Of a stretch of 64,000 nt of DNA, positions 15,844 through 47,525 are shown one piece after another. The notes under the pieces are model-generated. The model worked only from the letters and a program-made list of their open reading frames with translations, had not been told where the DNA came from and did no database searches. The translations under genes were made by a program, and so were the position numbers. Source of the stretch: Oscillospiraceae bacterium (GTDB lineage: Bacteria; Bacillota; Clostridia; Oscillospirales; Oscillospiraceae); the NCBI GenBank assembly GCA_015067935.1, contig SVLL01000002.1:345-64344 (forward strand), read 5' to 3'. Position 1 is the first letter of the stretch, and each line of letters opens with the position of its first letter.

Positions 15844-15874
15844 AAAAGCGCAGTGGTTCGCCACTGCGCTTTTT
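15844..15874. repeat. copy 2 of the 31-bp terminator direct repeat
   Basis: Identical to 15557-15587. Confidence 0.9.
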
Positions 15875-18147: not shown

Positions 18148-18174
18148 AAAAACAATGTAACCGAGGAATAAGCT

Positions 18175-19407: not shown

Positions 19408-19427
19408 ACACAAACGAGGTTTACGAA

Positions 19428-20123: not shown

Positions 20124-20143
20124 GCCGCAGCTGCGAAGAGAGG

Positions 20144-22232: not shown

Positions 22233-22260
22233 GCTCTGCCGATGAAAAGGAGAATGGAAA

Positions 22261-23163: not shown

Positions 23164-23186
23164 AAAACGGCGAACAAGGAGTAATT

Positions 23187-24296
23187 ATGGCAGAAAAGAT
23201 TCGAATTTTGCAGGTAACCGGTTCTTTGAGAATCGGTGGATTGGAAACGGTTGCCGTGAATCTTTATCGTTTTTGCGATAGAAGCAAATATGCCTTTGAC
23301 TATGTGGTCTATGGGGACGCTGTGGAGCCGATGGAGGCAACAGTGGAGGAACTGGGGGGCCGTGTGTTTCACATTCCCTATCCCCATAAGGGTGCGGGTG
23401 CGTACTTAAAGGCTCTGAAAAAGGTGATGGCAGATTACGGTCCATACGATGCGGTCCATTCTCACTCCCTGTTCAATTCCGGTCTGGTGATGCTTGCAGC
23501 CAAGCAGATGAAGATCCCGGTGCGGATATCTCACGGTCACTCCGACCGTCGGAATACGAAGGTGGCATTGCCCCGACGGCTGTATAATGGGTTGATGCGT
23601 ATGCTGATCAACCGCTACACCACCCAAAAGGTGGCCTGCTCCGAGGGTGCGGGAAAGTATCTGTTCGGCAAGAAATTTGACGAAAAGGTTTATATCATCC
23701 GCAACGGCGTCTGTGTGGACGATTTTCGCTACAGTCCCGAAAAGGCGGCAAAAATCAAGGCGGAATTCGGATGGGAAAATAACAAGATCGTGGGTCACAT
23801 CGGTCGGCTTGCCCCGGTTAAGAATCAAAAATGGATCCTGCGGGTATTTGCGCTTGCTTATCAAAAGGATCCTTCTTTGCGTCTGCTCATCGCCGGTGAC
23901 GGAGAGCTGAAAGAGCAGCTGCAGGAGCGAATCGACCGCATGGGCCTTTCGGAGGTTGCTGTTCTTGCGGGCACCAGAACAGATACTGCGGCTCTGCAAT
24001 CGGCCTTTGATGTATATATGATGGCGTCGCACTATGAAGGCGTCAGCATTTCCCTGATTGAGGCGCAGGCTTCGGGCGTAAACTGCCTGTCGTCCGATAC
24101 GGCGGCAACCCCTGCCACACGGATTTCCGAATGTCTGCATTTGCTGTCCCTTTCGGACTCTGCAGAGGCTTGGGCGGAAAAGCTGCTTGAACTGACAAAC
24201 AAACCTCGAAGTGCCGACTCTTGGGAAAAGGTTAAAGAAAGCGGCTACGATATTGTGCAAATCGTGCGCGAGGCTAGTCGGCTTTATGGAGGATGA
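23187..24296 (+). CDS. GT4 glycosyltransferase (EpsF-like)
   Basis: GGLET, HIGRLAPVKN, SHYEGVSISLIEAQASG. Confidence 0.9.
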   Translation: MAEKIRILQVTGSLRIGGLETVAVNLYRFCDRSKYAFDYVVYGDAVEPMEATVEELGGRVFHIPYPHKGAGAYLKALKKVMADYGPYDAVHSHSLFNSGLVMLAAKQMKIPVRISHGHSDRRNTKVALPRRLYNGLMRMLINRYTTQKVACSEGAGKYLFGKKFDEKVYIIRNGVCVDDFRYSPEKAAKIKAEFGWENNKIVGHIGRLAPVKNQKWILRVFALAYQKDPSLRLLIAGDGELKEQLQERIDRMGLSEVAVLAGTRTDTAALQSAFDVYMMASHYEGVSISLIEAQASGVNCLSSDTAATPATRISECLHLLSLSDSAEAWAEKLLELTNKPRSADSWEKVKESGYDIVQIVREASRLYGG

Positions 24297-33274: not shown

Positions 33275-34012
33275 ATGAAATGTCTGATTCTGGCGGCAGG
33301 CTATGCCACCCGTCTGTATCCGCTGACCGAGAATTTTCCCAAGCCGCTGCTGAAGGTGGGAGAAAAGACCATTCTGGACTGGCTGGTGGATGATATCCAC
33401 ACCTGCGGCGTAGTGGACGAGTATGTGGTGATCTCCAACCACAAGTTTGCCCATCATTTTGAAGAATGGGCCAAGACAAAGGCACAGAAAATCACCGTAG
33501 TGGATGACGGTACAGATTCCAACGAGACCCGTTTGGGCGCGGTGAAGGACATTCAGTTTGCCATTGACAAGCTGGCACTGGATGATGATATGCTGGTAAT
33601 TGCCGGTGACAATGTGCTGGATTTCAGCTTGTGCAAATTCATCGCCTATGCCCGGGAGAAGGGCACTTCCTGCGTGATGCGCTATTATGAAGCCAGCGAA
33701 GCCAAGCTGCGCAAGTCCGGTGTGATTTCTCCCGATGAAAACGGCAAGATCCTCTTTATGGAGGAAAAGCCGGCTGAGCCTAAGGCCAACTGGTGCTGTC
33801 CGCCCTTTTATTATTACACGAAGCAGGATGCCCGCCTGGTGCAAAAGGGGATCGACAGCGGCTGCGGTACTGATGCCCCCGGCAGCTATATTGCATGGTT
33901 GTGCGGTCAGACTACCGTCCACGCCATGGAAATGCCCGGGTCTCGGTACGATATCGGCAATCTGGAAAGCTATGAAACCGTCAAAGCTACCTATAAGGGT
34001 ATTACAAAATAA
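33275..34012 (+). CDS. sugar-1-phosphate nucleotidyltransferase
   Basis: ILAAGYATRLYPLT..PKPLL, RLGAV.D, AGDN, EEKP, YDIG. Confidence 0.9.
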   Translation: MKCLILAAGYATRLYPLTENFPKPLLKVGEKTILDWLVDDIHTCGVVDEYVVISNHKFAHHFEEWAKTKAQKITVVDDGTDSNETRLGAVKDIQFAIDKLALDDDMLVIAGDNVLDFSLCKFIAYAREKGTSCVMRYYEASEAKLRKSGVISPDENGKILFMEEKPAEPKANWCCPPFYYYTKQDARLVQKGIDSGCGTDAPGSYIAWLCGQTTVHAMEMPGSRYDIGNLESYETVKATYKGITK

Positions 34013-34013
34013 G

Positions 34014-34045
34014 AAAAAATGAGGTGAGCGATCACCTCATTTTTT
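34014..34045 (+). terminator. intrinsic terminator ending the polysaccharide locus
   Basis: aaaaaatgaggtga-gcga-tcacctcatttttt. Confidence 0.85.
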
Positions 34046-34061
34046 GTTGGGAAATGTCGGT

Positions 34062-34090
34062 TTGACAACGGTCCACCGGTGTGGTAAAGT
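34062..34090 (+). promoter_or_regulatory. sigma-A promoter of the TIR-LRR operon
   Basis: TTGACA-N17-TAAAGT with extended TG. Confidence 0.6.
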
Positions 34091-34121
34091 ATAGCTAAAG
34101 ATATACCAGGGAGGCGGTAAT

Positions 34122-34622
34122 ATGTACGATTGGAGCGGATGTCCCGCTGGATTTTTCGATTTGTATATGGAAACGGGCCAGGTGAAAAAAGTCCCCACGG
34201 CATCGGAGCCGGTGCTGGTGGAGGTCTGGGTGGCATCCACCTTTGCCGCTTCTGCGGTGCAGGAGGAATGCAAGGAGGCATCCCGCAGACCCATTTATGA
34301 TGTGCTGAAACAGATTCGGGGACTGTGCGGAGATCAGCCTGCCTGCGTGATCTTCCTGAGTGACGACGGCCGCAACGATGCGGTGGCCTGGTCGGCAGCG
34401 GTCACATTGCTGATCAAGCAGCTGAAAAAGGAAAAGCTTTTGGCCTGCTCCGTGCTTTATGCCGCAACTGGGGATGAAATTACCCGGGAGCTGAAGGATT
34501 TGTCGGATGTTTTAGTTTGCGGACAGTCCAATCCCCGGCAGGACAAGGCAGATGTCCAAATCCGGAGCAAAATATCCCAGCTGCCCTCTGCTTTGATCCG
34601 GTACATCGGTAGTGCTGAGTAA
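34122..34622 (+). CDS. hypothetical alpha/beta protein (possible degenerate FtsZ/tubulin-like fold)
   Basis: SD ggagg, promoter upstream, 31 nt before the TIR-LRR start; fold guessed by eye only. Confidence 0.6.
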   Translation: MYDWSGCPAGFFDLYMETGQVKKVPTASEPVLVEVWVASTFAASAVQEECKEASRRPIYDVLKQIRGLCGDQPACVIFLSDDGRNDAVAWSAAVTLLIKQLKKEKLLACSVLYAATGDEITRELKDLSDVLVCGQSNPRQDKADVQIRSKISQLPSALIRYIGSAE

Positions 34623-34653
34623 GTCTGCAACACAATGATCGGAGGTTATGCCA

Positions 34654-36552
34654 ATGAGCTGTGTATTTATCAGCTATAGCACAGAAAATCAGGACTGTGC
34701 GGATTTGATCCGACATTTTTTGAATAAGAATGGGATCAGCACCTGGATGGCTCCTTACGATATCCCCGTAGGCAGCAAGTATGCGGAGATCATCAACCGT
34801 GCCATTAGAAATTGTGCTTGTTTTCTTTTGTTACTGACCGATGCTTCTCAAAATTCCACCTGGGTGGCAAAAGAGTTGGAGCGGGCCATCCATTACCAAA
34901 AGACCGTCATCCCCCTGCAGCTGGAGAATGTGGTTTTGAATGACGAGTTTGAATTTTATATCAGCTCGTCTCAGATCATGAAGATGCACAGACTCCGGGA
35001 GGATGCGGAGGAGATCAAGCGTCTGCTGCCCGTACTCAGTGTGTATGCAGAGGGAAGCGTCCCATCTGCGGAGCCGGTCAAGGAATTTGAGATCTCCGGA
35101 ACCAAGCTGGTGAAATATTTGGGCAGCGGTGGGGATGTGGTCATCCCGGAGGGGATCACCTGCATTGCCAATGGTGCGTTTGCCAATCAGTCTCAGCTGC
35201 AATCCGTAACGATGCCGGATAAGGTAGAGTTTGTGGAGGAAAATGCGTTTTATGACTGCGGTGGCTTGATAACGGTTAAGCTTTCTCCCAATATCCGGAT
35301 GATTGACCGCAATGCGTTTTATAAATGCACCAGCCTGGTACAAATTGAACTGCCTGCTGCTGCCCATACCGTTAAGGGTTTGGCATTTCACCGCTGTGAG
35401 TCTCTGAAAAGTATTTTTATCCCGGCCAATGTATCCACATTTGCTTCGAATGCAATGCTGCATTGCTCTGGCCTGAAGGAAATCCAGGTGGATGAAAACA
35501 ACGGTCATTATAGCAGCAAGGATGGCATTTTGTACAATAAAGAAGGCACGAAGGTCATCTGCTGCCCGGAAGGATATTCCGGCAGAGTGGTCATTCCGGA
35601 AGGGGTCACTTCCATCTCCCGGTTTGCCTTTGCCCACTGCCAGCAGATTACCGAGATCATTTTCCCCACATCCCTGAAGACCATCGAAGAAAGTGCCTTT
35701 TGGCAGTGCAGCGGGATCACCCAGGTGCAGATCCCCGGCAGTGTGGGAGAATTGGGCTCCAGTGCCTTTGCTGAATGCACAAAATTGGAGCAGGTGAGTA
35801 TGGGGGAAGGAATGGTGGTCCTGCGGAAGAATGCCTTCCGAAAGTGTACCGCATTAAAATCGGTGGAACTGCCCCAGTCCCTGCGGACCATTGGCGGTAA
35901 TGCTTTTGAAGAATGTGCCTTGATACAAATCGCACTCCCGGAGCAGCTTGTTGCCCTGGAGGAGTATGCTTTCTTTAAGTGCAAGCAGCTGACCTCTGTC
36001 ACCCTGCCTACCCGTATGCCGGTTTTGAGTAAGGGCGTTTTTGCCTGGTGTCAGAAATTGGAGACGGTGGAAAATCTGGAGAATGTGCTGAAATTGGGCA
36101 ACTCTGCCTTCTTTGAATGCAACCTTCTGGATGTACCGGCACTGAATGAGAATCTGCTGTGTGTTGGTGAGGAGACCTTTTTCGGTTGCGAGAGGCTCAC
36201 CTCTGTGCATATCCCCGACACGGTGCAGACAATTGGCAAAAATGCCTTTGGGCGTTGTCGCGGACTTTCTAAAGTGACCATTGATGACGGTGTGAAGGAA
36301 ATCGGTGACTGGGCATTTGAAAGATGCGCTCGTCTGAGCGAGCTTATTTTGCCGGAATCCCTGGAGAAACTGGGCAAGCGGGTGTTTATGGATTGCTATA
36401 GCCTGGTGAATATTTACTTCCCCGGAGGGATCAAAGAGATCGGAGAGGATATTTTGGAAGGTGCCTCCGGTGCCATCGCCTATACGACGGCAGGTTCCTT
36501 TGCGGAGAAATATATGCGGGAGCATAATTTGATTTATGTTACGGTGCAATGA
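34654..36552 (+). CDS. TIR domain + BspA/TpLRR-type leucine-rich repeat protein
   Basis: VFISYS, W.APYDIP.G, S..STWVAKELERA (catalytic-type Glu); then many 23-aa repeats IPxxVxxIGxxAFxxCxxL; no signal peptide or TM. Confidence 0.9.
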   Translation: MSCVFISYSTENQDCADLIRHFLNKNGISTWMAPYDIPVGSKYAEIINRAIRNCACFLLLLTDASQNSTWVAKELERAIHYQKTVIPLQLENVVLNDEFEFYISSSQIMKMHRLREDAEEIKRLLPVLSVYAEGSVPSAEPVKEFEISGTKLVKYLGSGGDVVIPEGITCIANGAFANQSQLQSVTMPDKVEFVEENAFYDCGGLITVKLSPNIRMIDRNAFYKCTSLVQIELPAAAHTVKGLAFHRCESLKSIFIPANVSTFASNAMLHCSGLKEIQVDENNGHYSSKDGILYNKEGTKVICCPEGYSGRVVIPEGVTSISRFAFAHCQQITEIIFPTSLKTIEESAFWQCSGITQVQIPGSVGELGSSAFAECTKLEQVSMGEGMVVLRKNAFRKCTALKSVELPQSLRTIGGNAFEECALIQIALPEQLVALEEYAFFKCKQLTSVTLPTRMPVLSKGVFAWCQKLETVENLENVLKLGNSAFFECNLLDVPALNENLLCVGEETFFGCERLTSVHIPDTVQTIGKNAFGRCRGLSKVTIDDGVKEIGDWAFERCARLSELILPESLEKLGKRVFMDCYSLVNIYFPGGIKEIGEDILEGASGAIAYTTAGSFAEKYMREHNLIYVTVQ

Positions 36553-36638
36553 TCGGCAAAGCAGCAGATGCTTGATATCATAAAGTAAAAAGAATGGGAA
36601 GAATAATTTAACGCATATTTTTGCGATGTGACTGTTTG

Positions 36639-36681
36639 GAAGAACTCCTCTGCTCTATGGATGCAGAGGAGTTCTTCTTTT
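36639..36681 (+). terminator. intrinsic terminator after TIR-LRR
   Basis: gaagaactcctctgc / gcagaggagttcttc + tttt. Confidence 0.8.
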
Positions 36682-36748
36682 GGGCGGTATGATCTCCTTG
36701 TTTTACAGATACTAACAGCGTAATTTGCAAAAATATTGTAGGTACCAA

Positions 36749-36870
36749 AGCCTCCCTCTGATGAGGGAGGCGTCACGAAGTGACGGAGGGATTGTAAAGT
36801 ATCGACACAGAACGATCCCCCAGTCAGAAATCAAAGATTTCTGCCAGCCCCCTTTACACAAGGGGGCCTT
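36749..36870 (+). repeat. multi-hairpin REP-like element (same family as 57367-57480)
   Basis: gcctccctctgatgagggagg...cggaggga...tcccccagtcag...ctgccagccccct...agggggcc. Confidence 0.75.
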
Positions 36871-36999
36871 AGTTCGCACCTAACCGCATCTGCGGTGGTG
36901 GGGCACCACACGCAAGCGAAAGAAAATTCGATGAGCCTATAGGCTCGGCTGGTAAAAGGCCCTAAGGGGGCCTGTGCATACCTTTGGCACGGCCGGTGG

Positions 37000-37707
37000 T
37001 TATGATTGCATCAAGTAGCGGATGCCCACCAAAATCAAAATGTGCAGGGGATAGAAGGCATAAAACAGAAATTTCAGCACAGGACCTTTAATGAAGCCCC
37101 GCTGCCCGTTGTACATATTGATGGGAATAAAGGCTGCTTCCGCGGCCAGACCGCCGGAGAGCAGGGGATAGCAAATCAAAGCTTGCGCGGCCGGATGATG
37201 GCGTAAAATGTAGATTGCAAGGACCAGTAATGCCCCGGGCATACCGTAATCCGTTGCCAAATAATGGGTAAGAAAGCAAACACCGCCCATCATCACAAAT
37301 TTTAGCAGCTGCTTCTCCTTGCTCTCGAAGAGGCAAATCAGCATCAGCCCGGAAAACAGAGTAAAGAAGACATTTTGCGCATTGAGATCAAAACGGGTAA
37401 AAAACATCAGATCAAAAGGAATTTCGGAGATCAGGGCAAAAAGCAACAGCCGCAGGGCATATTTTGCCTTGTTTTTGGTATGGCAGTAGCCTTCCGCAAT
37501 CAAAAAGCAGAAGATGGGAAACGCCATCCGTCCGATTTTGCGCATGATCCAGTAGATAGTCAGTTCCTTGCCGAGAACGGTGAAGGGGGTAGCAAGGACG
37601 GGAAGCACATAAACCATAGTGCTTGCAAAATGGTCGATGAACATAAGGATCACCGCCAAAAGCTTCAGCATACTGCCGCTCAAAATCTTAATATTCCTTT
37701 GACCCAT
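37000..37707 (-). CDS. TraX family membrane protein
   Basis: LKLLAVILMFIDH, GRMAFPIF, EG, ISEIPFD, QNVFFTL, DYG, YNGQRG, FYAFYPLH. Confidence 0.9.
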   Translation of the reverse strand: MGQRNIKILSGSMLKLLAVILMFIDHFASTMVYVLPVLATPFTVLGKELTIYWIMRKIGRMAFPIFCFLIAEGYCHTKNKAKYALRLLLFALISEIPFDLMFFTRFDLNAQNVFFTLFSGLMLICLFESKEKQLLKFVMMGGVCFLTHYLATDYGMPGALLVLAIYILRHHPAAQALICYPLLSGGLAAEAAFIPINMYNGQRGFIKGPVLKFLFYAFYPLHILILVGIRYLMQS

Positions 37708-38726
37708 TAGGTTTCCCCCTTTGCCGGTGCGCCTTTCTCCCACAAGCGGCTGCACAGCATTGCACAGCGACGCAGGAGAAAGCACCCCAGTCCAATGGGC
37801 AAAAGGCTGCCGATCCAAAGCCAGGTGCGGATGCCGCCCAAATCAAATTTGTAGATCACAGCCGGGAGAAAAAAGACGAAAAATACATGCACAAGATACA
37901 GTTCAAAGGAGTAGTTGCCGCACAGGGAAAGGAAGGAGATCACGGGCTTGGTGTATTTTGTTTTTTCCAGCAGGCCGGACAGATAGGAGACGGCTACACA
38001 CACTGGTGGTGTGATCAGCAGGAAGGGATACCAATAAAGACCGTAATTCCACAAAAGCTCTGCACTCAGCCAATGCTGTGCAGCTGCCAAAAGCCCGGCA
38101 CCCAGCACAAAGGCGACGGTCAGACCGGCAATATGCCCGGCTGTGATCGCGGCGTCCTTTTGGCACGCTTTGGCAAAGAGCATACCAACATAGAAGAGGG
38201 GCAGACGGCTGACTGCGATGATGAGTGTGGGCGTGTTCCAAAAAGGAACGGTGCCCACGAGCAACAGTCCCACAAAAGCCAACTTGCCCAGGGGCGAGGA
38301 ACGCTCGGCCACGGATTTGAAGTAGGGAGCAAGAGCATAGAAAAGGAAAATAGCACCAATGTACCAATTGAAATCCTGCCCAAGCCCTGTAAAAAACTGG
38401 ATGCCCAGCAGATTGCCAATGGCCATCTGATACCCAAAAGCACCGATCACATATTGGTAGACCAGCCAGATCACTATAAAAAGCAGATAGGTGGGGCCAA
38501 GTCGTTTTAATCGGCGTTTCATAAACATTCCCACATCCGGATTGGCAGTCAGAGAATAAAAACAACCGATACCGGAGGCGAAAATACAGATATCCACACC
38601 ACCGTACCCCAAGTCAATGAAAAACTGCAGAGGTCCGAAATTCAGGGGACAATGATACAGCATAATCCAAACTGTTGCCAGGCCCATCCATACGGACCGG
38701 TGACGGAGCAAGTCCTTTCGGCACAT
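37707..38726 (-). CDS. acyltransferase-3 family membrane protein
   Basis: MG.A.VWIMLYH, GYGGVDI...SG.G, RRLKRL, WYI, G.YSFELYLVH. Confidence 0.88.
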   Translation of the reverse strand: MCRKDLLRHRSVWMGLATVWIMLYHCPLNFGPLQFFIDLGYGGVDICIFASGIGCFYSLTANPDVGMFMKRRLKRLGPTYLLFIVIWLVYQYVIGAFGYQMAIGNLLGIQFFTGLGQDFNWYIGAIFLFYALAPYFKSVAERSSPLGKLAFVGLLLVGTVPFWNTPTLIIAVSRLPLFYVGMLFAKACQKDAAITAGHIAGLTVAFVLGAGLLAAAQHWLSAELLWNYGLYWYPFLLITPPVCVAVSYLSGLLEKTKYTKPVISFLSLCGNYSFELYLVHVFFVFFLPAVIYKFDLGGIRTWLWIGSLLPIGLGCFLLRRCAMLCSRLWEKGAPAKGET

Positions 38727-38885
38727 AGGCTCACCTCCAAAAGAGTTATTTTATGTGGCTATGATACCACACGACGGTAAAAAAGTAAAGATGCACAACA
38801 AAAGGCCGGTCGGAGGCTTTTTCGATTTAGGCAGTATAAATCTTCCCCTTTTACAAATAATAGCATCGTAATTTGTAAAATTATT

Positions 38886-38955
38886 GTAGGGCGGGGCCTT
38901 GGTCCCGCCGCATACAAAAACGCACCGAACGGCGGGAGCAAGAAATCCGCCCAAC
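38886..38955. repeat. inverted GTAG-type REP doublet (REPIN-like)
   Basis: gtagggcggggccttggtcccgccg (38886-38910) and inverted degenerate copy (38930-38955). Confidence 0.7.
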
Positions 38956-38985
38956 GATGTATTTGTAAAAAGGAGAAAGATATAT

Positions 38986-39528
38986 ATGAAAGCGACAGGT
39001 ATCGTAAGACGCGTTGACGATTTGGGGAGAATTGTTATTCCAAAAGAAATCAGAAGAACCCTCCGCATCCGTGAGGGCGACCCTCTTGAAATTTACACCG
39101 AGAAGGATGGGGGCGTGATTTTCCGCAAATATTCCCCTATGGGCGACCTGCAGGAATTTGCTGCCCAGATGTGCGAGGCCATCGGCTCCGGCTCCGGTCA
39201 CATGGCGGCCGTGGCGGATCGGGATGCCATTATCGCGCTGTCCGGTGTGCCCAAGCGTGAGCTGATGGACAAGCCCAATTCCGAGGCTCTGGAAAAGCTG
39301 ATGGAGCAGCGGCAGCATTACCGCTTTGCTACCGGGGATACCCCGGTTCGGGTATCCGACGGGGTAGAGAAGTACCACCTTGGTGTGGCATCGCCTATTT
39401 TGTGTCAGGGCGACCTGATGGGCTGCGTGATGCTGCTTTTGGGGGAACACGACGCGCCTCTGGCAGAATCCGATCAGAAGCTGGCACAGATTGCCGCCAA
39501 TTTCCTGGGCAGCCAGATGGAAAACTAA
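38986..39528 (+). CDS. spoVT: stage V sporulation protein T
   Basis: MKATGIVRRVDDLGRIVIPKEIRRTLRIREGDPLEI + GAF-like C-terminus (A.FLG.QME). Confidence 0.95.
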   Translation: MKATGIVRRVDDLGRIVIPKEIRRTLRIREGDPLEIYTEKDGGVIFRKYSPMGDLQEFAAQMCEAIGSGSGHMAAVADRDAIIALSGVPKRELMDKPNSEALEKLMEQRQHYRFATGDTPVRVSDGVEKYHLGVASPILCQGDLMGCVMLLLGEHDAPLAESDQKLAQIAANFLGSQMEN

Positions 39529-39533
39529 AAAGG

Positions 39534-39564
39534 ACCCTCGCATCCGGCAGGATGCGAGGGTTTT
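39534..39564. terminator. bidirectional terminator
   Basis: accctcgcatcc-ggca-ggatgcgagggt. Confidence 0.8.
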
Positions 39565-39567
39565 GCA

Positions 39568-40845
39568 TTATATGGAAGCTTCGTATTGCGCGATATTGAC
39601 CACCCGGTTTTCCAGCCGGGCCGCCTCAGCGGCAAAGCCGGTGATGTGGTTTTCGTAAGAGGTTCGGACCTCACAGATGGATTTGCTGGGCTTATCGCCT
39701 CTCAGCAGGCTCAGGGTGTCAACCATAATGCCGGTATCACCGCCGCCGTGACCGGAGGAAATGTCGTTGCCATATTCGGAAATTTCGATGGTTTCCCATT
39801 GCTGTGTGGCAAAGGAGTACAGCCGCAGCTTGCTTTGATCCAGATCGCTGATCAGCTCACCTTCCGTGCCGAAAATGCGGATGAACCGACCACCCTGATT
39901 GAATGCAGACATAGTAAACGATACGGTGCAGCCGTTTTCGTATTCCAGATTGACTACCTGATGATCCACCACATCGTTGTCGCAAGCATACACGCACCGG
40001 CCGTAAGGACCGGTTTTCAGAGCCTCCCAAACCTGCTCGGGTGTAGGCACATCCACTGTGCCGGCAACGGCTTTGCGCCCCCAGCCCCAAAGCTCACTAT
40101 TTTCGTCCATATACAGCTTTTGAGCATTGTAATGGCAGTTTTCTGCATGGGGGCAGCCATCTGTGCAGCGGTCCGGCGCACCGGCAGGCTGATTCTCCCG
40201 GCGGAAATACTTCAAGCTGCCAAAGGACTGAACGGATACGCATTTTTCCCCGATGACCCACTGCAAAATATCCATATCGTGGCAGCATTTTGCCATAATC
40301 ATACAGCTGCTTTCGGCGGTGTTGCGCCACGCGCCTCGCACATAGCTGTGGCTTTGGTGGATATGTCCCACATTTTCAGTGGCCATAATGGACATAATTT
40401 TGCCCAGACGGCCCTTGTCCACCAGATCCTTGATGGTACACCAGAAGGGAGTAAAGCGCAGTACATGGCAGACGACCACCTTTACGCCCTTTTCTTCGGC
40501 GGCCTCTGTGATGGCCCTGCACTCCTGCGGCGTGGGAGCCATAGGCTTTTCCAGCAGAAGATGATAGCCCTTGTCAATTAGGGCCAGAGCGGGTTCGTAG
40601 TGCATATTATCCTGCGTTGCCAAAATGGCAAAATCTGCCAACTTTGGCTGGGCGGTCAAATCCTGCCATGTGGCATATTGCTGCTGCCGGGGGATATTAT
40701 GCCACTGGGCGGCAGAGGCCCGTCGGGCAGCGTTTGGATCGGCAACTGCCACAATTTCCAGTTCTTCGGGATGCTGACGGGAATATGCGGCATAGGCAGC
40801 ACCCCGGCCACCGTAACCGACCACAACGGCAGTGAGCTTTTTCAT
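39568..40845 (-). CDS. Gfo/Idh/MocA oxidoreductase
   Basis: VGYGGRG, LLEKPM, CHVLR, HSYVRG.WR, AKCCHD.D, GHGGGD. Confidence 0.9.
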   Translation of the reverse strand: MKKLTAVVVGYGGRGAAYAAYSRQHPEELEIVAVADPNAARRASAAQWHNIPRQQQYATWQDLTAQPKLADFAILATQDNMHYEPALALIDKGYHLLLEKPMAPTPQECRAITEAAEEKGVKVVVCHVLRFTPFWCTIKDLVDKGRLGKIMSIMATENVGHIHQSHSYVRGAWRNTAESSCMIMAKCCHDMDILQWVIGEKCVSVQSFGSLKYFRRENQPAGAPDRCTDGCPHAENCHYNAQKLYMDENSELWGWGRKAVAGTVDVPTPEQVWEALKTGPYGRCVYACDNDVVDHQVVNLEYENGCTVSFTMSAFNQGGRFIRIFGTEGELISDLDQSKLRLYSFATQQWETIEISEYGNDISSGHGGGDTGIMVDTLSLLRGDKPSKSICEVRTSYENHITGFAAEAARLENRVVNIAQYEASI

Positions 40846-40969
40846 AGAAAGACCTCCTGTGTCATTGACAAAATTCGTCCTTGCAGGTATTATTATGGTA
40901 TAGTTGAAAACAAAAGTGAATACATAAAAGTATGAAAAATCTATGATTTTGTATGGGTGGGATGTAATC

Positions 40970-41776
40970 TTGTTTGAATATGCGGATGTGAGCAGTGTTT
41001 TTCGCATCAAGTCCTTAAACACAGCCTTCACCACCCAAATTGGGGAACGGTATCACTTTGTGGGCGAGCGGCACGATTTTTGGGAACTGGTAATCGTTAT
41101 CGATGGAGAAGTGGGTGTGACTGCAGGAGAAAAAACCAGCGTGTTCCAGAAAGGTGATGCAATTTTACATTATCCTATGGAATTTCATCGGGTATGGTAT
41201 GCGGAGAATGTTCCGGCAGAAATTTTGATTTTCAGCTTTTCTGCGGAAAATGTACCGGAGGTGAAAAACAGGCAATTCGTTGTGCCGGATTTGCGTGTTC
41301 CCATCAACCTGCTTCATAAAATCCAAAGCGTATTTACAATGGATGAGGGAAATGTACACGCTATGTGCCGGGAGGAGTTGAACTGCCATATTGTGCTAAA
41401 GGAACTGGAAATCTTTTTGCTGGAACTGCTCCGTGGCAGAGGCTTGGCGTTTGCCGGCACAAATTCCAAAAGCGCAGAAAATTATACCCGGTTGGTGCGC
41501 TGCCTGACAGACCAGTTGGGGAAGGATCCTTCCGTGGAAGAAATTGCAAGACTGTGTAATATGAGTGCGGTAAATGCCAAGCAAACCTTTGCACGATATG
41601 CCGGAATGGGAATTCGGGATTATTTCAACCGCCTGCGGGTTGAAAGGGCTATTACAATGCTGCGTGATGGCTGCTCTGTACAGGAAACGGCTGCTGCATT
41701 GGCCTTTTCCAGTCCCAATTATTTCTGCACAGCTTTCAAGCGCATTACAGGGCGAGCGCCGACGGCGTATAAGTAA
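40970..41776 (+). CDS. AraC family regulator
   Basis: Cupin GERHDFWE, PMEFH; C-terminal HTH FSSPNYF..AFK..G..P; TTG start assumed (ORF opens at 40943). Confidence 0.88.
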   Translation: MFEYADVSSVFRIKSLNTAFTTQIGERYHFVGERHDFWELVIVIDGEVGVTAGEKTSVFQKGDAILHYPMEFHRVWYAENVPAEILIFSFSAENVPEVKNRQFVVPDLRVPINLLHKIQSVFTMDEGNVHAMCREELNCHIVLKELEIFLLELLRGRGLAFAGTNSKSAENYTRLVRCLTDQLGKDPSVEEIARLCNMSAVNAKQTFARYAGMGIRDYFNRLRVERAITMLRDGCSVQETAAALAFSSPNYFCTAFKRITGRAPTAYK

Positions 41777-41789
41777 AAGGAGGGTATAT

Positions 41790-42293
41790 ATGAGATCTTG
41801 GATACAAAAGCACAGCATTTTGCTTTCGTTTCTGCTGGTACTGGCAGTAATGGTGATGATTTATTGCTTCTCCGCCCAGACCGGCGAGGAATCCGGCGCA
41901 ATGAGCGGAGAGATCACCCGATGGCTGCTGAGCATTTTTGTGCCGGATTTTGACGCTTGGGCGTCGCAGGAGCAGGAGAGCTTGCTGTATGCGGTGGGCC
42001 TTATTATTCGCAAGCTGGCACATTTTTCGGAATACGCGCTGCTGGGTTTTGCGCTGTTGCTGCATATTTCTCAGGTGCAAAAGAAAATCTCGGTGCGTTT
42101 GCCGGCTTTATGGGCTTGGGGAATCGGCACACTTTATGCCGCCTCCGATGAATTCCACCAAAGCTTTGTGGGTGGTCGCGGGCCGGCGGTGACGGATGTG
42201 ATGATCGACAGTGCCGGTGTGATCGCCGGTGTGCTGATTATGGCGTGGCTCCTGCACAGAAAAAACCGGAACAGACAGTTTTTGAAAGGATGA
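41790..42293 (+). CDS. VanZ family membrane protein
   Basis: IYCFSAQ, RKLAHFSEY..LG, YAASDEFHQSFV.GR, DV.ID. Confidence 0.9.
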   Translation: MRSWIQKHSILLSFLLVLAVMVMIYCFSAQTGEESGAMSGEITRWLLSIFVPDFDAWASQEQESLLYAVGLIIRKLAHFSEYALLGFALLLHISQVQKKISVRLPALWAWGIGTLYAASDEFHQSFVGGRGPAVTDVMIDSAGVIAGVLIMAWLLHRKNRNRQFLKG

Positions 42294-42298
42294 AAAGG

Positions 42299-43099
42299 AT
42301 GAAAAAAGCCATTTTGTGTATCCTTGCGCTGATGCTCTTGCTTGCCGGATGTGCTCCGGCAGAGCCGTCACAGCCAAATGAGGAAATCAAACCGGATGTC
42401 CAGCTAATGGAAAAATATCCGGAGTATTTTGGCTTGGACACCTCCGAAGGGCTGGATGTTTATGTGTGGCAGATGGCAAAAAACAGCTATTCCTTCGGCT
42501 TGCTGTCCCATCAGGAGACCCCCAGAGATGTGTTGGATCCCGCACTGTGGGAGATGAAGAGCACGACACCTGCAGAAATGCGCCAGATTTTGGCCACCTA
42601 TGACATAAACCAAAGCTGGATTCACATTATCCCGTGGCAGAATCCCTTGTCCGGTTATTGGATGGAGTACTGGGTCGTCCGTGAGGGAGAAGATCTCGCG
42701 GCCAAGCAGAAGGCCTATGTGAAATTCGTGGAAATGATGCTGTTTATGCCGTCGGAATATACCCCTGTTTTGGCAGATATGGTGTTTGATGCGGACGGTG
42801 ACGGCAGCCCGGATTACTGCACCTTAAGTGTCGGTCCTACTTCCGGAGCATTTTCCTTTACCTTCCGGGTGTTCGATCCCCAATTGGAAACACCCAAATA
42901 TGAACAGACTTTCCAAATGGAGCATTGTCAGCTGTCCTTTCGGTATGATTTCATAAACGACGCTAACTACATCAAGACGGTCACCCTGACGGATGATCCC
43001 CAGACCTCTTACTACCGTCCCGTTATTGAAAACGGGCAGGTGACGCTGGAAAAGGTGGATTATACCCCGCCGGATATTACGGTGTACCCGGATAATTGA
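42299..43099 (+). CDS. lipoprotein of unknown function
   Basis: Lipobox LLAGC; DADGDGSPD Ca-binding-like loop. Confidence 0.75.
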   Translation: MKKAILCILALMLLLAGCAPAEPSQPNEEIKPDVQLMEKYPEYFGLDTSEGLDVYVWQMAKNSYSFGLLSHQETPRDVLDPALWEMKSTTPAEMRQILATYDINQSWIHIIPWQNPLSGYWMEYWVVREGEDLAAKQKAYVKFVEMMLFMPSEYTPVLADMVFDADGDGSPDYCTLSVGPTSGAFSFTFRVFDPQLETPKYEQTFQMEHCQLSFRYDFINDANYIKTVTLTDDPQTSYYRPVIENGQVTLEKVDYTPPDITVYPDN

Positions 43100-43188
43100 A
43101 AAAGTAGCCGCTCTCCGACCGGAGAGCGGTTGCATATTACCCCGAAAACTGCTATAATAAAGAAAAAACCCACAAAAGGACGAAAAAT

Positions 43189-44379
43189 ATGAGCGAAAAC
43201 ATTACATTTGCCGATCTCGGCCTTTCCGAGCCGATGCTGAAGGCATTGGAAAAGAAAGGTTACGGCTATCCCACTACCATTCAGGCGGAGGCCATTCCCC
43301 ACTTTATGCAGTGGCGGGATGTAATCGCCAAGGCCCCTACCGGCACCGGCAAGACCTTTGCCTTTGGTATTCCTATGATCGAGCATATCGATGCCGCCTG
43401 CGAGGATGTGCAGGGGCTGATCCTTGCCCCTACCCGGGAGCTGGCCATCCAGATCGGTGACGAGCTGCGAGGGCTGCTGACCCACTATCAGGGCATCCGG
43501 GTGGCGGTGCTCTATGGCGGTGCCGGCATTGGCGGTCAAATTCAGCAGCTGCAGAAGAAACCTCAAATTGTTGTTGCGACCCCCGGCCGGCTGATGGACC
43601 ACTATAACCGCAAAACCATCCGTCTGGACAAAATCCAGACCGTTGTGCTGGACGAGGCGGACCGGATGTTGGATATGGGCTTCTTCAAGGATGTGACCCG
43701 AATCATCGAGAAGGTGAAAAATCGCAAGAATCTGGGCCTGTTTTCCGCAACCATTTCCCAAGAGGTGATGACGGTGTCTTGGATGTACCAGCGGGACGAG
43801 GTGGAGATCACCGTCGAGCCCAAGCAGCAGGACCGCCCGGACATTGACCAGTACAGCCTGACTATGTCCCCGCTGGAAAAGGCGGCGACTACCCTGCGGC
43901 TGATCCGCAGCCAGGGCTTTGAGCGGGGCATCATCTTCTGCAACACCAAGCACATGTGCCAGCGGCTTTGCGATGAATTTCAGCGTGCCGGCTTGGATTG
44001 TGAGTGCATCCACGGCGATATTAAACAGAGCCTGCGGGAGAAGACCATGCAGAAATACCGCACCGGTAAGCTGGCGGTGCTGATTGCCACGGATGTGGCA
44101 TCCCGGGGTATTGATGTGGATGATGTGGAATGTGTCATCAATTATGATGTGCCGGAGGAAAATGAATACTATGTCCACCGCATCGGCCGTACCGGACGGG
44201 CAAGACGGAAGGGAAGTGCCTTTTCTATGATCGGCAATTTCCCTGAAAAGGCCAAGCTGGACGAAATCGCAAAATTCTCCGGCTATACCATTAAGCCGAT
44301 GGTCCTGCAGGAGGACGGTGCGCTGGTGGAGGAAGCACCTGCTCCCGTACCCCCCAAGCCTCGGAGGAAGTTTAAATGA
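43189..44379 (+). CDS. DEAD-box RNA helicase
   Basis: APTGTGKT, PTRELA, TPGRL, DEAD, SAT, RGID, HRIGRTGR. Confidence 0.95.
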   Translation: MSENITFADLGLSEPMLKALEKKGYGYPTTIQAEAIPHFMQWRDVIAKAPTGTGKTFAFGIPMIEHIDAACEDVQGLILAPTRELAIQIGDELRGLLTHYQGIRVAVLYGGAGIGGQIQQLQKKPQIVVATPGRLMDHYNRKTIRLDKIQTVVLDEADRMLDMGFFKDVTRIIEKVKNRKNLGLFSATISQEVMTVSWMYQRDEVEITVEPKQQDRPDIDQYSLTMSPLEKAATTLRLIRSQGFERGIIFCNTKHMCQRLCDEFQRAGLDCECIHGDIKQSLREKTMQKYRTGKLAVLIATDVASRGIDVDDVECVINYDVPEENEYYVHRIGRTGRARRKGSAFSMIGNFPEKAKLDEIAKFSGYTIKPMVLQEDGALVEEAPAPVPPKPRRKFK

Positions 44380-45263
44380 CCGATCGGGAATGTGGCTTTT
44401 TGCTGCTGGGAAGCCAATTGGGTGACCCGGACCGTCATCCGCTGACCACTGCGCAGCTTCGGGATCTGGCAAACCGTGTAGCGTCTGCGGATAAGCCGAC
44501 GGAGGATCGGGAGCTGCTCCCGGCAGATTTGCGCAGCTTGGGCTATGGGCAGGAAATGGCGGAGCGTATCGTGCACCTTCTGGGAGAAACAGAGCGGCTG
44601 CATTGGTACTTAAATCGGGGAAAACGGGAGGGCTGTGTGCCCCTGACCCGGTTAAGCGAGGGCTATCCGCTTGCTATGCGCAAGCGATTAGGCTTGGACA
44701 GCCCCGGCGTTTTGTGGGCAATGGGAGATCTGTCCATTTTGGAAAAACCCCGGATCGCCTTGGTGGGAAGTCGGGAGATCCGGGAGGAAAATGCCGCCTT
44801 TGCCGCCAGAGTGGGTGCGGAGGCCGCCTTGCAGGGCTATGTGCTGGTTTCCGGCAATGCCCGGGGAGCGGACCGCATTGCGCAGACCGCTTGCCTGAAT
44901 GCAGGTGGGCAGGTGATATGTGTACTGGCGGATGAATTACAAAAGCAGGAAATTACGGAAAATGTGCTGTATCTCAGCGAGGACAGCTTTGATTTACCCT
45001 TTTCTGCCCAGCGGGCCCACAGCCGCAACCGGGTGATTCACGCACTGGGGGAAAAGACCTTTGTGGCGCAATGTGCATCGGGCACGGGTGGAAGTTGGAG
45101 CGGCACTGTGCGAAATATCAAGGAAAATTGGAGTCCGGTGTTTTGTTTCCGGGATGGAAGCGAAGCAATGTATCAACTGGAACAACTGGGGGCGGTTTTG
45201 CTTGACAACGAGGATTTGTCGAAACTCTCCGCACTGCAAAGCCAACCATCCGGGTTCTTTTAA
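44376..45263 (+). CDS. DprA/Smf family protein (divergent subtype)
   Basis: YP..M, ALVGSR, VSGNARGAD, RNRVIHALG, GGSWSG. Confidence 0.85.
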   Translation: MTDRECGFLLLGSQLGDPDRHPLTTAQLRDLANRVASADKPTEDRELLPADLRSLGYGQEMAERIVHLLGETERLHWYLNRGKREGCVPLTRLSEGYPLAMRKRLGLDSPGVLWAMGDLSILEKPRIALVGSREIREENAAFAARVGAEAALQGYVLVSGNARGADRIAQTACLNAGGQVICVLADELQKQEITENVLYLSEDSFDLPFSAQRAHSRNRVIHALGEKTFVAQCASGTGGSWSGTVRNIKENWSPVFCFRDGSEAMYQLEQLGAVLLDNEDLSKLSALQSQPSGFF

Positions 45264-45279
45264 AAAAGGAGAAAAAACT

Positions 45280-45492
45280 ATGGCGCAAGAATATCCCTGC
45301 AATTGGAAAAACTGTGCAACCTGCGCATTTTGGATCGCAAACAGAGATTGTGACCATTTCGGTCAGAGAGCCATCGTGCCCAGCTCTTCGGAAAGAGGCA
45401 GATGTGCCATCCCCTCCGGCGGCTGGCGCGGCTCACAGCGGCAGGCAAATAACACCTGCAGCTCGTGGCAGAAATGGCCGGTGCTGAGATAA
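45280..45492 (+). CDS. 70-aa Cys-rich miniprotein
   Basis: SD aaggag, terminator downstream; CATCAFW...GRC...CSSW. Confidence 0.7.
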   Translation: MAQEYPCNWKNCATCAFWIANRDCDHFGQRAIVPSSSERGRCAIPSGGWRGSQRQANNTCSSWQKWPVLR

Positions 45493-45496
45493 ATAG

Positions 45497-45528
45497 CAAA
45501 AAACAGCGGAGTTTTCCGCTGCTTTTTG
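45497..45528 (+). terminator. intrinsic terminator
   Basis: cagcgga-gttt-tccgctg + cttttt. Confidence 0.7.
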
Positions 45529-45530
45529 CT

Positions 45531-45554
45531 TACCCACTGATGCATCAGTGGGTA
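45531..45554. repeat. perfect 24-bp palindrome upstream of glmS
   Basis: tacccactgatg|catcagtgggta. Confidence 0.85.
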
Positions 45555-45683
45555 TAATTTTTGCAGAAAATTCTGGAAATAATCAAAAATTATAAAATTA
45601 TAGTTGAAAAATGCACATAAAGCGTGTACAATAGGGGAGGTTGATGCGATCCGGCGGATCGCAATATTTCAGGAGGTTATGTT

Positions 45684-47525
45684 ATGTGTGGAATTGTCGG
45701 GTATGCAGGCGGGCAGCAAGCTGCCCCTATCTTGTTGGAGGGGCTGGCGAAGCTGGAGTACCGGGGCTATGACTCTGCCGGTATTTGCGTTCACGGTGCA
45801 AAAGAGATGCAGGTGGTCAAGGCAAAGGGACGGCTGAAGGTCCTTTGTGAAAAAACGCAGGACGGTGCTTCGGTACCGGGAACAGTGGGAATCGGGCATA
45901 CCCGATGGGCCACCCATGGTGCGCCGTCGGATGCTAACAGTCATCCCCATTTGTCGGACAGCGGCAGTGTTGCTGTGGTGCATAACGGCATTATTGAAAA
46001 TGAGGCCAAGCTGCGCAGTTGGCTGATGGAGCGGGGCGTCCGTTTCCATTCGGAAACAGATACGGAGGTGGTCGCCAATCTGGTAGGCTACTATTATGAC
46101 AAGGACGGCAATTTTATTGCCGCGGTGCGTCGTGCCTTGCGGCAGCTGGAGGGCAGTTATGCACTGGGCTTCCTCTGCGCGGATTTACCCAATTTGATCG
46201 TTGCGGCAAAAAAGGATTCTCCGCTGATTTTTGGCTACGGGGACGGAGAAAATTTTGTTGCATCGGATGTTCCTGCCATTTTGAAGCATACCCAGACCGT
46301 TTCCTATATGGAAGACGGGGAAATGGTGGTTTTCGACGGTCACAATGTGCGTTTCTTCGACGGAATGGGCGATCCGGTGGAAAAGCAACGGGAAACCGTT
46401 ACTTGGGAGCTGTCCGCTGCGGAGCGGGGTGGCTTTGACCACTTTATGCTAAAAGAGATTTTTGAGCAGCCTAAGGCGTTGAAGGATACGATCAGTCCCC
46501 GGCTGAAAAACGGTCAGGTGGTATTTGAGGGCATCGATCTGTCCGCCGCATATCTCAAGGATGTGCGGAAGATCCATCTTGTGGCCTGCGGCTCGGCTTA
46601 CTATGTTTCTGTTCTGGCCAAGTATATCATCGAAAAGGCCTGCCACATTCCCACAGAAGCGGCGATGGCATCGGAATTCCGCTATGCCGAGCCCGTGGTG
46701 GACGAACACGATCTGGTAATTATCATCAGTCAATCCGGCGAGACCGCAGATACGCTGGCGGCCCTGCGTGAGGCCAAGCGGCTGGGGGCAAAAACTTTGG
46801 CCATTGTCAATGTGGTGGGCTCGGCCATTGCCAAAACAGCTGACCAGACGATTTATACTTGGGCAGGCCCGGAAATCGCGGTGGCAACCACAAAGGCATA
46901 CTCCACCCAGCTGGCGGTGGTGTATCTGCTGACGGCATATATGGCGCGGCAGCTGGGCACGATGGATGAGGAAACCTATCACGCTTGGGTGCAGGCGTTG
47001 GAGAATCTGCCGGCAGCTGCGGAAAGGGTTCTCTGCCCGGAAAATGTGGAGACAGTACAGTTTTTGGCCAGCCGCTACTACGGGCATCACGATGCCTTTT
47101 ACATCGGCCGGAATGTGGACAGTGCCATTTGTCTGGAGGGCAGCCTGAAGCTGAAGGAGGTTGCCTATCTCCACAGCGAGGCCTATCCTGCAGGAGAGCT
47201 GAAGCACGGACCGATCTCATTGATCGAAAACGGGACCTTGGTGGTGGCTATGGCAACGGTTGCGCCTTTGTTTGACAAGATGATGGCCAACATCCGGGAA
47301 GTTAAGGCCAGGGGTGCGGATGTATTGTGTGTCACGCTGGAGGAATCGGCAGAGGAAGCCGCCAAGCAGACGGACAATATTTTGACGATTCCGAAGGTAC
47401 TGCCGGTGTTTCAGCCCAGCCTTTCCATCATCCCCTTGCAGCTGTTTGCCTATTATGTTGCGTTGAATCGGGGATGCGATGTAGATAAGCCCAGAAATCT
47501 GGCAAAATCAGTGACAGTGGAATAA
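45684..47525 (+). CDS. glmS: glutamine--fructose-6-phosphate aminotransferase
   Basis: MCGIVG, LEYRGYDSAG, GHTRWATHG, SQSGETADT, KPRNLAKSVTVE. Confidence 0.98.
   Translation: MCGIVGYAGGQQAAPILLEGLAKLEYRGYDSAGICVHGAKEMQVVKAKGRLKVLCEKTQDGASVPGTVGIGHTRWATHGAPSDANSHPHLSDSGSVAVVHNGIIENEAKLRSWLMERGVRFHSETDTEVVANLVGYYYDKDGNFIAAVRRALRQLEGSYALGFLCADLPNLIVAAKKDSPLIFGYGDGENFVASDVPAILKHTQTVSYMEDGEMVVFDGHNVRFFDGMGDPVEKQRETVTWELSAAERGGFDHFMLKEIFEQPKALKDTISPRLKNGQVVFEGIDLSAAYLKDVRKIHLVACGSAYYVSVLAKYIIEKACHIPTEAAMASEFRYAEPVVDEHDLVIIISQSGETADTLAALREAKRLGAKTLAIVNVVGSAIAKTADQTIYTWAGPEIAVATTKAYSTQLAVVYLLTAYMARQLGTMDEETYHAWVQALENLPAAAERVLCPENVETVQFLASRYYGHHDAFYIGRNVDSAICLEGSLKLKEVAYLHSEAYPAGELKHGPISLIENGTLVVAMATVAPLFDKMMANIREVKARGADVLCVTLEESAEEAAKQTDNILTIPKVLPVFQPSLSIIPLQLFAYYVALNRGCDVDKPRNLAKSVTVE

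Follow-up and report, generated by a model that had tools for sequence, protein, structure and literature searches.

Organisation of the locus

The window analysed here is a 64,000-nt stretch of DNA from an Oscillospiraceae bacterium (assembly GCA_015067935.1, contig SVLL01000002.1, positions 345 to 64,344 of the forward strand). Positions 34062-36688 of the window form a self-contained unit, made up of a promoter, a small open reading frame (ORF A), a gene coding for a protein which joins an N-terminal TIR domain to a long array of BspA-type leucine-rich repeats (LRRs; hereafter the TIR-LRR gene), and a terminator (Table 1). These elements had all been proposed in an earlier reading of the stretch made from its sequence only, and each was found where that sequence-only reading had placed it. 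The cassette sits between the last gene of a polysaccharide/sugar-nucleotide cluster (in the order epimerase, UDP-glucose dehydrogenase, GHMP kinase, nucleotidyltransferase) and a convergent pair of genes for TraX and an acyltransferase, i.e. at the 3' edge of the polysaccharide locus on whose border it had already been put.

A gap of 31 nt separates the end of ORF A from the start of the TIR-LRR gene, and the two genes share one upstream promoter-like site, in which the -10 hexamer (TAAAGT) is TG-extended. The operon contains neither a permease gene nor a second TIR gene. The same arrangement is seen in two short contigs, L034 and L035, which carry homologues of ORF A (72% and 67% identity). 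Both the -35 element and the extended -10 are kept in L035, and the -10 is kept in the truncated L034; a hairpin equivalent to the one which precedes the cassette in the window is also present in L035. In both contigs the TIR gene starts 18-31 nt after ORF A, and its first 26 (L034) or approximately 15 (L035) codons are nearly identical to those of the window gene. Promoter, ORF A and TIR start are therefore kept together in L034 and L035, and in the latter they stand, with the terminator, behind a different upstream gene, in agreement with the stand-alone operon that had been suggested.

The long reading frame of the TIR-LRR gene opens at a first ATG at position 34648 (34648-36552). The true start is placed at the second ATG (34654), because the first is replaced in L034 and the second is conserved, and because public gene calls also give a protein of 632 aa; the size of about 630 aa in the sequence-only reading was right, and only its start had to be moved. 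Residue numbers refer to the 632-aa protein throughout. None of 200 shuffled sequences was as stable as the terminator hairpin at 36631-36688. No Rfam family matched the region 33900-39100, and metatranscriptomic data yielded a single 301-nt contig, from one run, over 35066-35365, which is too little to claim transcription.

Table 1 Features of the cassette and its borders (window coordinates).
Feature	Position	Strand	Basis or remark
Bidirectional terminator hairpin, 14-bp stem, T runs on both sides	34014..34045		Ends the polysaccharide operon; left border of the cassette
Promoter-like site: -35 TTGACA, 17-nt spacer, extended -10 TGTGGTAAAGT	34062..34090	+	10/12 matches, TG present
ORF A, 166 aa, small acidic cytoplasmic protein (predicted), unnamed family	34122..34622	+	GGAGG 7 nt upstream
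TIR-LRR gene, 632 aa, start at the second ATG	34654..36552	+	GGAGG 8 nt upstream
TIR domain, aa 1-133, at the extreme N-terminus	34654..35052	+	Pfam TIR_2; AlphaFold2 strand/helix pattern
Codon of E74, predicted catalytic Glu of W70-x-x-x-E74	34873..34875	+	Invariant in subfamily TIRs; aligned to the Cat1 Glu
BspA-type LRR solenoid, aa 143-632	35080..36549	+	Pfam LRR_5; repeat parsing; AlphaFold2
Intrinsic terminator hairpin followed by UUUU	36631..36688	+	dG -34.6 kcal/mol, z -7.6; right border of the cassette

The TIR-LRR protein

The N-terminal domain is matched by Pfam TIR_2 at aa 6-127 (E 1.3e-21, 77.7 bits, cut-off 28) and, also above threshold, by Pfam TIR (25.6 bits, cut-off 21.3). LRR_5 covers the rest of the protein in four stretches (E 7e-102, 336.7 bits), which were parsed into approximately 20 repeats of 23 aa that fall into two blocks, both starting with the LRR_5 cap motif G-x-L-x-x-Y...V-x-I-P-E-G-V. 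The NCBIfam and PADLOC scans added no domain to these two, none of the three scans (Pfam, NCBIfam, PADLOC) found an NTPase, and Pfam found no P-loop domain. The AlphaFold2 model (overall predicted local distance difference test score, pLDDT, of 79) shows alternating strands and helices in the TIR part (pLDDT of about 71-91 per 10-residue block), a low-confidence linker of 9-10 residues or so, and a regular beta-strand ladder in the LRR part, with a pLDDT above 90 for aa 370-630 and low values for aa 265-352.

The protein contains no hydrophobic segment (the highest Kyte-Doolittle mean over 19 residues is 1.15), neither signal peptide, transmembrane segment, anchor nor dockerin was found in it, and its gene has no secretion-system neighbour; strand beta-A of the TIR begins as early as residue 4. 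Pfam and hydropathy thus agree with the earlier description of a cytoplasmic protein lacking a signal peptide, a membrane span and an NTPase, and support a cytoplasmic location. The exact 632-aa sequence is absent from the protein collection, and the best 120 matches of a full-length search include no close relative over the whole length.

A TIR subfamily with exchangeable tails

A search with the TIR domain only, among proteins of 348-1110 aa, returned 104 proteins with 34-63% identity (nearly all 44-63%), mostly from metagenome-assembled genomes (MAGs) of Clostridia, including Ruminococcaceae, Lachnospiraceae and Hominenteromicrobium. The TIR is placed N-terminally in 101 of the 105 subfamily proteins. 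The WxxxE motif reported in the sequence-only reading is present as W70..E74, and its glutamate is kept by all 105 TIRs of the subfamily; an alignment of 26 subfamily sequences showed 19 invariant TIR positions, E74 among them. When the subfamily profile was compared with solved structures, only NAD+-cleaving TIRs were matched, with the catalytic Glu aligned: Cat1 (E 5e-7), in which E74 aligns with the Glu of the motif WCWDELEQA, ThsB-like TIRs, SARM1/TIR-1, AbTIR, TIR-STING and the TIR-APAZ of SPARTA. Of these solved relatives, Cat1, SARM1/TIR-1, AbTIR and SPARTA work as assemblies. The TIR domain is hence assigned to the NAD+-cleaving type, and NADase activity may be expected of it.

What follows the TIR differs widely between the subfamily members. 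Counted from the Pfam column of the TIR-only search, with family names which we take to correspond to the accessions, the tails are protein kinases (21, some with FHA), FtsK/SpoIIIE (13), LRR_5 (11), PF19789 (7), MORN (6), RCC1-like (3), AAA (3), Sel1 (2) and TPR (2), with single cases of a classical LRR, a tubulin-like, a PRPP-synthetase and an HD domain. The tubulin-like fusion (P0150, Tubulin_2) has its TIR at the C-terminus, and VWA (n = 1) and DnaA-like (n = 2) domains co-occur with LRR_5 in TIR fusions. In a quick and weakly resolved maximum-likelihood tree of the TIRs, 12 LRR_5 fusions need 12 label changes, the same as with shuffled labels, and the well-supported branches force at least three origins of the LRR_5 fusion. 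The FtsK, PF19789, RCC1 and TPR fusions cluster, unlike those with LRR_5. Of the three nearest TIRs within the genus (45-47% identity), one is joined to LRR_4, one to Sel1 and one to an unassigned tail. Taken together, the diversity of the tails, the scatter in the tree and the tails of the congeners indicate that the TIR head and the LRR_5 tails recombine freely. The TIR-LRR protein belongs to a large family of TIR-X proteins whose tails have been swapped. The sequence-only reading had overlooked this family, which occurs in gut Clostridia and of which no description was found in the literature.

Some of these relatives are found in company. A contig of run SRR4254081 (L039, 1-12008) contains six TIR-X genes in a tandem array (kinase, plain TIR, TPR/Sel1, LRR_5, kinase, TPR), and one of run ERR12816216 (L041, 1-8148) an array in which two TIR-LRR_5 genes accompany a DUF4062-STAND NTPase. 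These arrays have five or six TIR-X genes, and each has a small DUF1292 gene near its start. Other relatives are solitary. In GCA_052838365.1 (L042, JAZMTD010000036.1, 6001-8361), a lone 786-aa TIR-LRR_5 gene lies between era and recO, in the housekeeping gene row phoH-ybeY-dgkA-era / recO. A congener (locus L015, G009:C122:3165-6560) encodes a 629-aa TIR-LRR_4 protein with a classical LRR, the TIR of which is 47% identical to that of the window; this gene is located directly 3' of a Polysacc_synt_2 gene on the same strand, and is the second TIR-LRR gene of the genus which ends a polysaccharide locus.

ORF A and its pairing with LRR_5

ORF A belongs to no Pfam, NCBIfam, PADLOC or PHROG family, and an exhaustive search of 1.84 billion representatives returned 29 clusters. 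Compared with its homologues in L034 and L035 it has a dN/dS of 0.22-0.36, so it is a real gene under purifying selection. A further homologue with 50% identity (P0231) was found on two contigs, where an LRR_5 gene without a TIR starts 85 nt after it, opening directly with the LRR_5 cap and repeat (Pfam LRR_5, 32 bits). Since P0231 precedes a TIR-less LRR_5 gene, the closest relatives of ORF A track LRR_5 rather than TIR. ORF A is therefore a conserved partner of the LRR module, a point missed by the sequence-only reading, and the two may be in physical contact. Prediction of a complex of ORF A with the full TIR-LRR protein gave a score of 0.00, which speaks neither for nor against binding. 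The more distant members of the family adjoin an insertion sequence (IS) transposase, DUF4298, GNAT or a 789-aa unknown protein. The link to DUF4298 was seen in two forms, as a fusion in P0253 and as a DUF4298 gene just upstream in L038 (2-169).

AlphaFold2 modelled ORF A with high confidence from an alignment of 27 sequences (pLDDT 93.6, predicted template modelling score 0.90). The best fold matches are radical-SAM activases: in VIA-align the model aligns with the PFL-activating enzyme (3c8f) over 120 residues (Z 8.0, root mean square deviation 3.1) and with three QueE structures (Z 7.6, 7.5 and 6.2). The matches with Z 8.0, 7.6 and 7.5 cover 115-120 residues, identity is 10-14%, and the next unrelated rows have Z of at most 5.7. 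Fer4_12/NrdG-like clusters of the ESM-Atlas also match the model (TM-scores 0.69 and 0.59). As a Z near 8 can be reached between unrelated alpha/beta folds, neither homology with the activases nor a shared partial-barrel fold is established. The CxxxCxxC motif for a [4Fe-4S] cluster is absent from ORF A and from the 27-member alignment, none of the 27 members is matched by the Radical_SAM or Fer4_12 hidden Markov models, and the residues which the family does conserve are Y15, E17, E34, W36, E49, R55, D129 and N137. According to the model, ORF A is probably a cluster-less protein resembling a radical-SAM activase, which would serve as a binding or regulatory module and not as a radical enzyme.

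Other identities were considered for ORF A. A VWA-like reading, suggested by language-model look-alikes (0.88-0.93, with few shared features), was unsupported by the fold searches. An FtsZ-like reading was not borne out either, with no signature motif in the sequence and no FtsZ among the fold matches: the tubulin signature loop GGGTG(S/T)G is absent from ORF A and its relatives, and the two PDB fold searches list no FtsZ or tubulin chain among their top 50 rows, nor do the atlas rows, which does not in itself exclude the fold. Comparison of the ORF A profile with PDB sequences gave chance-level matches only, nothing was found in PHROGs and phage genomes, and pattern scans of genome and metagenome contigs confirmed no relative. 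A 168-aa reading frame located before the TIR-Sel1 gene of a congener (G056) turned out to be unrelated to ORF A.

Distribution and strain variation

Whether the gene is core, a question raised in the sequence-only reading, is answered by its distribution. A search of 60 other species of the genus recovered the flanking genes and no DNA resembling 34062-36550. ORF A was not detected in 40 relatives, and when its profile was run against 400 genomes from the order and 400 from the class, its own genome gave the only match. Of 250 further genomes from the order, 8, belonging to six families, carry the TIR subfamily (E <= 1e-20), with 1-3 copies each. The cassette is thus accessory, not core, and patchily distributed. 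No empty insertion site could be defined, because the flanks are not syntenic in the congeners. The source organism is uncultured, and its MAG amounts to 1.78 Mb and is 79% complete.

Contigs nearly identical to the stretch were found in metagenomes of animal gut and faeces. Those of two other studies cover most of the cassette with about 99% identity, and those of one run are identical to it. Among the listed differences between strains, 13 of the 17 in the TIR-LRR gene, including 10 of the 13 that fall in the LRR, change an amino acid, against 2 of 5 in ORF A; the share in TIR-LRR is close to what is expected for unselected change. This could be a sign that the LRR is under relaxed or diversifying selection, and is a weak observation made on contigs of depth 3-5. 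The evolution of the LRR could be followed only through such low-depth contigs, because neither the exact protein nor, among the best 120 matches, a close full-length relative was found.

Genomic surroundings

The assembly as a whole has eight TIR_2 matches in seven genes and a number of LRR_5 proteins without a leader. Among fourteen LRR_5 reading frames checked, a clear signal peptide was seen in at least eight, and six have no leader; the latter are the TIR-LRR protein itself, two proteins encoded on contig C17 and three on contig C12. The two on C17 (300 and ~630 aa) belong to a TIR island (~9300-23800; locus L009, 3324-17772) which begins with an ADP-ribosylglycohydrolase, continues with two paralogous X-TIR-TPR proteins (896 and 844 aa) and these LRR_5 proteins, and ends with a 1738-aa protein having an N-terminal TIR and SecA-like DEAD/P-loop domains. 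The C12 cluster (37900-46140; L053, 3918-12141) comprises DUF2201 (VWA-like plus metallopeptidase), two leaderless LRR_5 proteins, DUF4760, a MoxR-like AAA ATPase, DUF4132 and the third leaderless LRR_5 protein. Its gene set is similar to that of the MoxR-vWA conflict systems of Kaur et al. (PMC7159879), from which it differs by its BspA-type LRRs. These two contexts show that leaderless LRR_5 proteins recur beside conflict-type enzymes in this organism. The proteins of the C17 island and the C12 cluster have no PADLOC system match beyond the TIR domain.

Directly after the terminator of the cassette, two interspersed non-coding repeats occupy window positions 36781-37008. The first, of 55-90 nt (36781-36871), has about 20 copies in the genome, some of them as inverted pairs. 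The second, of 167 nt (36842-37008), has five more genomic copies (three full-length, two partial) with 96-98% identity, one of which lies at the end of contig C12, and copies in congeners with 85-93% identity. Their depth in gut metagenomes is in the thousands, and neither has an Rfam match. Further downstream, the start of the SpoVT/AbrB-type gene (38961-39083) and 60 nt upstream of it (38830-38891) have several matches in congeners (75-100% identity), which correspond to paralogous AbrB-type N-termini and a conserved leader.

Interpretation of the cassette

The locus is best explained as a rare, horizontally mobile two-gene cassette, and the best reading of its product is that of an intracellular sensor-effector acting in biological conflict, presumably against phages, which we hold with evenly divided confidence. 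According to this reading the LRR, together with ORF A, would bind a foreign or altered self protein, probably a multimeric one, and would thereby bring TIR domains together. Known TIR NADases need such an assembly for their activity. The assembled TIRs would then cleave NAD+, resulting either in its depletion (abortive infection) or in a signal derived from ADP-ribose, and ORF A would be a dead-enzyme-like alpha/beta protein aiding the LRR as co-sensor, bait or regulator. A role in conflict is proposed because of the invariant active site, the solved relatives which are NADases only, the swapping of tails, the patchiness, the portability of the cassette and the company the genes keep, including the relatives in TIR-X arrays, one of which has the DUF4062-STAND NTPase. 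The trigger, and the involvement of phages or other mobile elements, are put forward by analogy. In SpbK, a TIR NADase is switched on when its non-TIR domain binds the phage portal (PMC11984713); in E. coli, a single protein with TIR and TPR, as well as other TIR systems, protects against phages and responds to phage structural proteins (PMC11350192); and DSR2, a SIR2 NADase, is activated by a phage tail tube protein (PMC11290490).

Several observations weigh against a role in conflict. The PADLOC check suggested along with the sequence-only reading gave matches at the level of the TIR domain only and no system, and no defence gene adjoins the cassette, whose immediate neighbours encode polysaccharide functions, TraX, an acyltransferase and SpoVT. 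A ThsA-like SIR2 was not found in the 79%-complete genome, and the protein has neither an NTPase nor another obvious assembly device. Variability of the LRR between strains, which had been named as a further check, was not borne out: the gene is about 99% identical in the two other gut metagenomes (low-depth contigs) and its LRR is not hypervariable, though most LRR differences are non-synonymous. Some tails of the family (FtsK, kinase-FHA, DnaA, PRPP synthetase) do not belong to the classical sensors, and the family may therefore have a different purpose. In addition, TIRs of gut bacteria produce NAD-derived metabolites for which no immune role has been demonstrated (PMC9092222).

A rival explanation is a non-immune signalling or regulatory module, in which the TIR would make or sense an NAD-derived molecule or mediate assembly, with the LRR and ORF A docking proteins, for instance in the control of the envelope or polysaccharides, in cell division or in sporulation. 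Such a module, which we consider possible though unlikely, is favoured by the occurrence of the same TIR head on FtsK/SpoIIIE, Ser/Thr kinase-FHA, DnaA-like, tubulin-like and PRPP-synthetase domains, by the two TIR-LRR genes of the genus (in the window and in G009) which directly follow polysaccharide genes on the same strand, by the relative between era and recO, and by the conservation at strain level (about 99%). It fits less well with the patchiness (8 of 250 genomes of the order, 0 of 60 congeners), which is odd for a physiological regulator, with the free swapping of LRR_5 tails, with the relatives in multi-paralogue arrays, or with an ORF A nearly unique to this species. The small upstream gene and larger downstream enzyme, which share one promoter and are 31 nt apart, would also suit a pair resembling a toxin-antitoxin system, in which the TIR-LRR protein would be a latent NADase toxin and ORF A its antidote, stabilising the DNA segment with or without a part in defence; immunity proteins do inhibit other NADase toxins. 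The pairing of ORF A and TIR is conserved in three lineages, the cassette is seen in different contexts and interspersed repeats flank it. We nevertheless find this explanation rather improbable, as the 50%-identical homologue of ORF A before a TIR-less LRR_5 gene means that ORF A is not tracking the putative toxin domain, distant members of its family stand beside a transposase, GNAT or DUF4298, and ORF A is missing from most TIR-LRR_5 relatives.

A host-directed or surface factor, i.e. a TIR mimic like the Tcp proteins of pathogens, carried on a BspA-type adhesin repeat and released so as to act on the animal host or on other microbes, appears very improbable. The organism does inhabit animal guts, BspA-type LRR_5 proteins are usually found on the surface, and at least eight others of this genome have clear signal peptides. 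The TIR-LRR protein lacks every feature of export listed above, with beta-A at residue 4 leaving the TIR at the very start of the chain, and the six leaderless LRR_5 proteins of the genome are found in contexts of an intracellular type. The conflict reading can, on the other hand, be taken further: leaderless BspA-type LRRs could be a general class of intracellular sensors in gut Clostridia, ORF A and LRR_5 a guard-and-bait pair which has captured a TIR head, and the TIR-X proteins an uncharted immune repertoire. Here the LRR would hold a catalytically dead PFL-AE/QueE/NrdG-like ORF A, which a phage factor would disturb. This would give an NTPase-free receptor-effector with the TIR-plus-LRR logic of TNLs and TLRs, independently assembled, and the kinase, FtsK, tubulin-like and DnaA-like tails of other TIR-X proteins would be integrated decoy-like domains. 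We regard this extended version as a speculative proposal with a small chance of being correct.

The combination of TIR with sensor repeats is central to innate immunity in plants and animals, and bacterial TIR systems are now seen as relatives of these. No simpler form of such a receptor can be conceived than a TIR joined directly to an LRR with no NTPase. If the protein is indeed an NADase switched by an LRR ligand, it would provide a small, soluble model of how LRR binding leads to TIR assembly, and would open up a large TIR-X protein family in gut Clostridia. The pairing of ORF A with LRR_5 offers a concrete and testable interaction between two proteins. If the cassette is not immune, the occurrence of a highly conserved, catalytic-type TIR head on FtsK, kinase and tubulin-like proteins would suggest that these anaerobes regulate core processes in an NAD-linked manner.

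Comparison with known systems

Among characterised proteins, SpbK from the ICEBs1 element of Bacillus subtilis (PMC11984713) is a single-protein abortive-infection system, comparable in being a Firmicute TIR NADase with a binding domain on the same polypeptide, a conserved catalytic Glu and no NTPase. Its TIRs would presumably be clustered, and NAD+ depleted, once a multimeric phage protein is bound (PMC11984713). It is only 267 aa long, with a small N-terminal binder and a C-terminal TIR, whereas the protein described here has an N-terminal TIR, an LRR of ~490 aa and a partner gene. A TIR combined with a solenoid repeat, on one protein or divided between two genes, is known from the E. coli TIR systems I-IX (PMC11350192) and from BcTir/Tpr of Bacillus cereus (bioRxiv 10.1101/2023.05.26.542521), where the repeat is TPR; in the TIR-II type both parts are on one polypeptide, as they are in the TIR-LRR protein with its LRR_5. 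Those systems consist of one protein or of two genes, several of them needing both, are triggered by phage structural or DNA-binding proteins, and in ~30% of TIR-II cases carry an ATPase as well (PMC11350192). None has a partner like ORF A, and their similarity to the TIR-LRR protein is limited to the TIR fold. DSR2 (PMC11290490, PMC10973363) shares the N-terminal NAD+-destroying enzyme, the large C-terminal region governing the response to a phage protein and the lack of an NTPase; it is a single gene whose product is reported to be inhibited by DSAD1 (PMC11290490, PMC10973363), and differs in having a SIR2 fold, another sensor fold and no partner gene.

Thoeris, in which the TIR protein ThsB produces a signal that a ThsA-type effector receives, has a two-gene layout with a TIR, and weak matches of the ThsB type were obtained (Pfam ThsB_TIR 1.6e-4, PADLOC ThsB 5.5e-6). 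It differs in that no ThsA-type SIR2/SLOG or Macro-TM protein is encoded nearby, the neighbours being ORF A, TraX, Acyl_transf_3 and NTP_transferase, and no SIR2_2 was found in the 79%-complete assembly; ORF A is without known signal-binding domains, and the TIR of the window has its own large LRR. The plant TNLs, animal TLRs and bacterial Avs/STAND proteins likewise combine a TIR with LRRs or other repeats as the sensor. In TNLs and Avs, assembly is driven by a central STAND NTPase, which the TIR-LRR protein lacks, and TLRs are membrane proteins with classical, extracellular LRRs, unlike the BspA-type repeats found here in a protein without a membrane span. With the BspA-type surface proteins it shares the LRR_5 repeats and not the signal peptide or the anchor/export context.

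Surveys of bacterial TIRs note only that their architectures are diverse (PMC7075850, PMC9092222), and no paper describing or testing a bacterial TIR-LRR_5 protein was found. As for ORF A, the radical-SAM activases PFL-AE, QueE and NrdG are its best structural matches and its size is close to that of a 157-aa NrdG-like cluster, the difference being the CxxxCxxC cluster motif which ORF A is missing. Compared with all of these systems, what is particular to this locus is the presence of ORF A as a partner, with an activase-like fold in its model and a link to LRR_5 genes that have no TIR.

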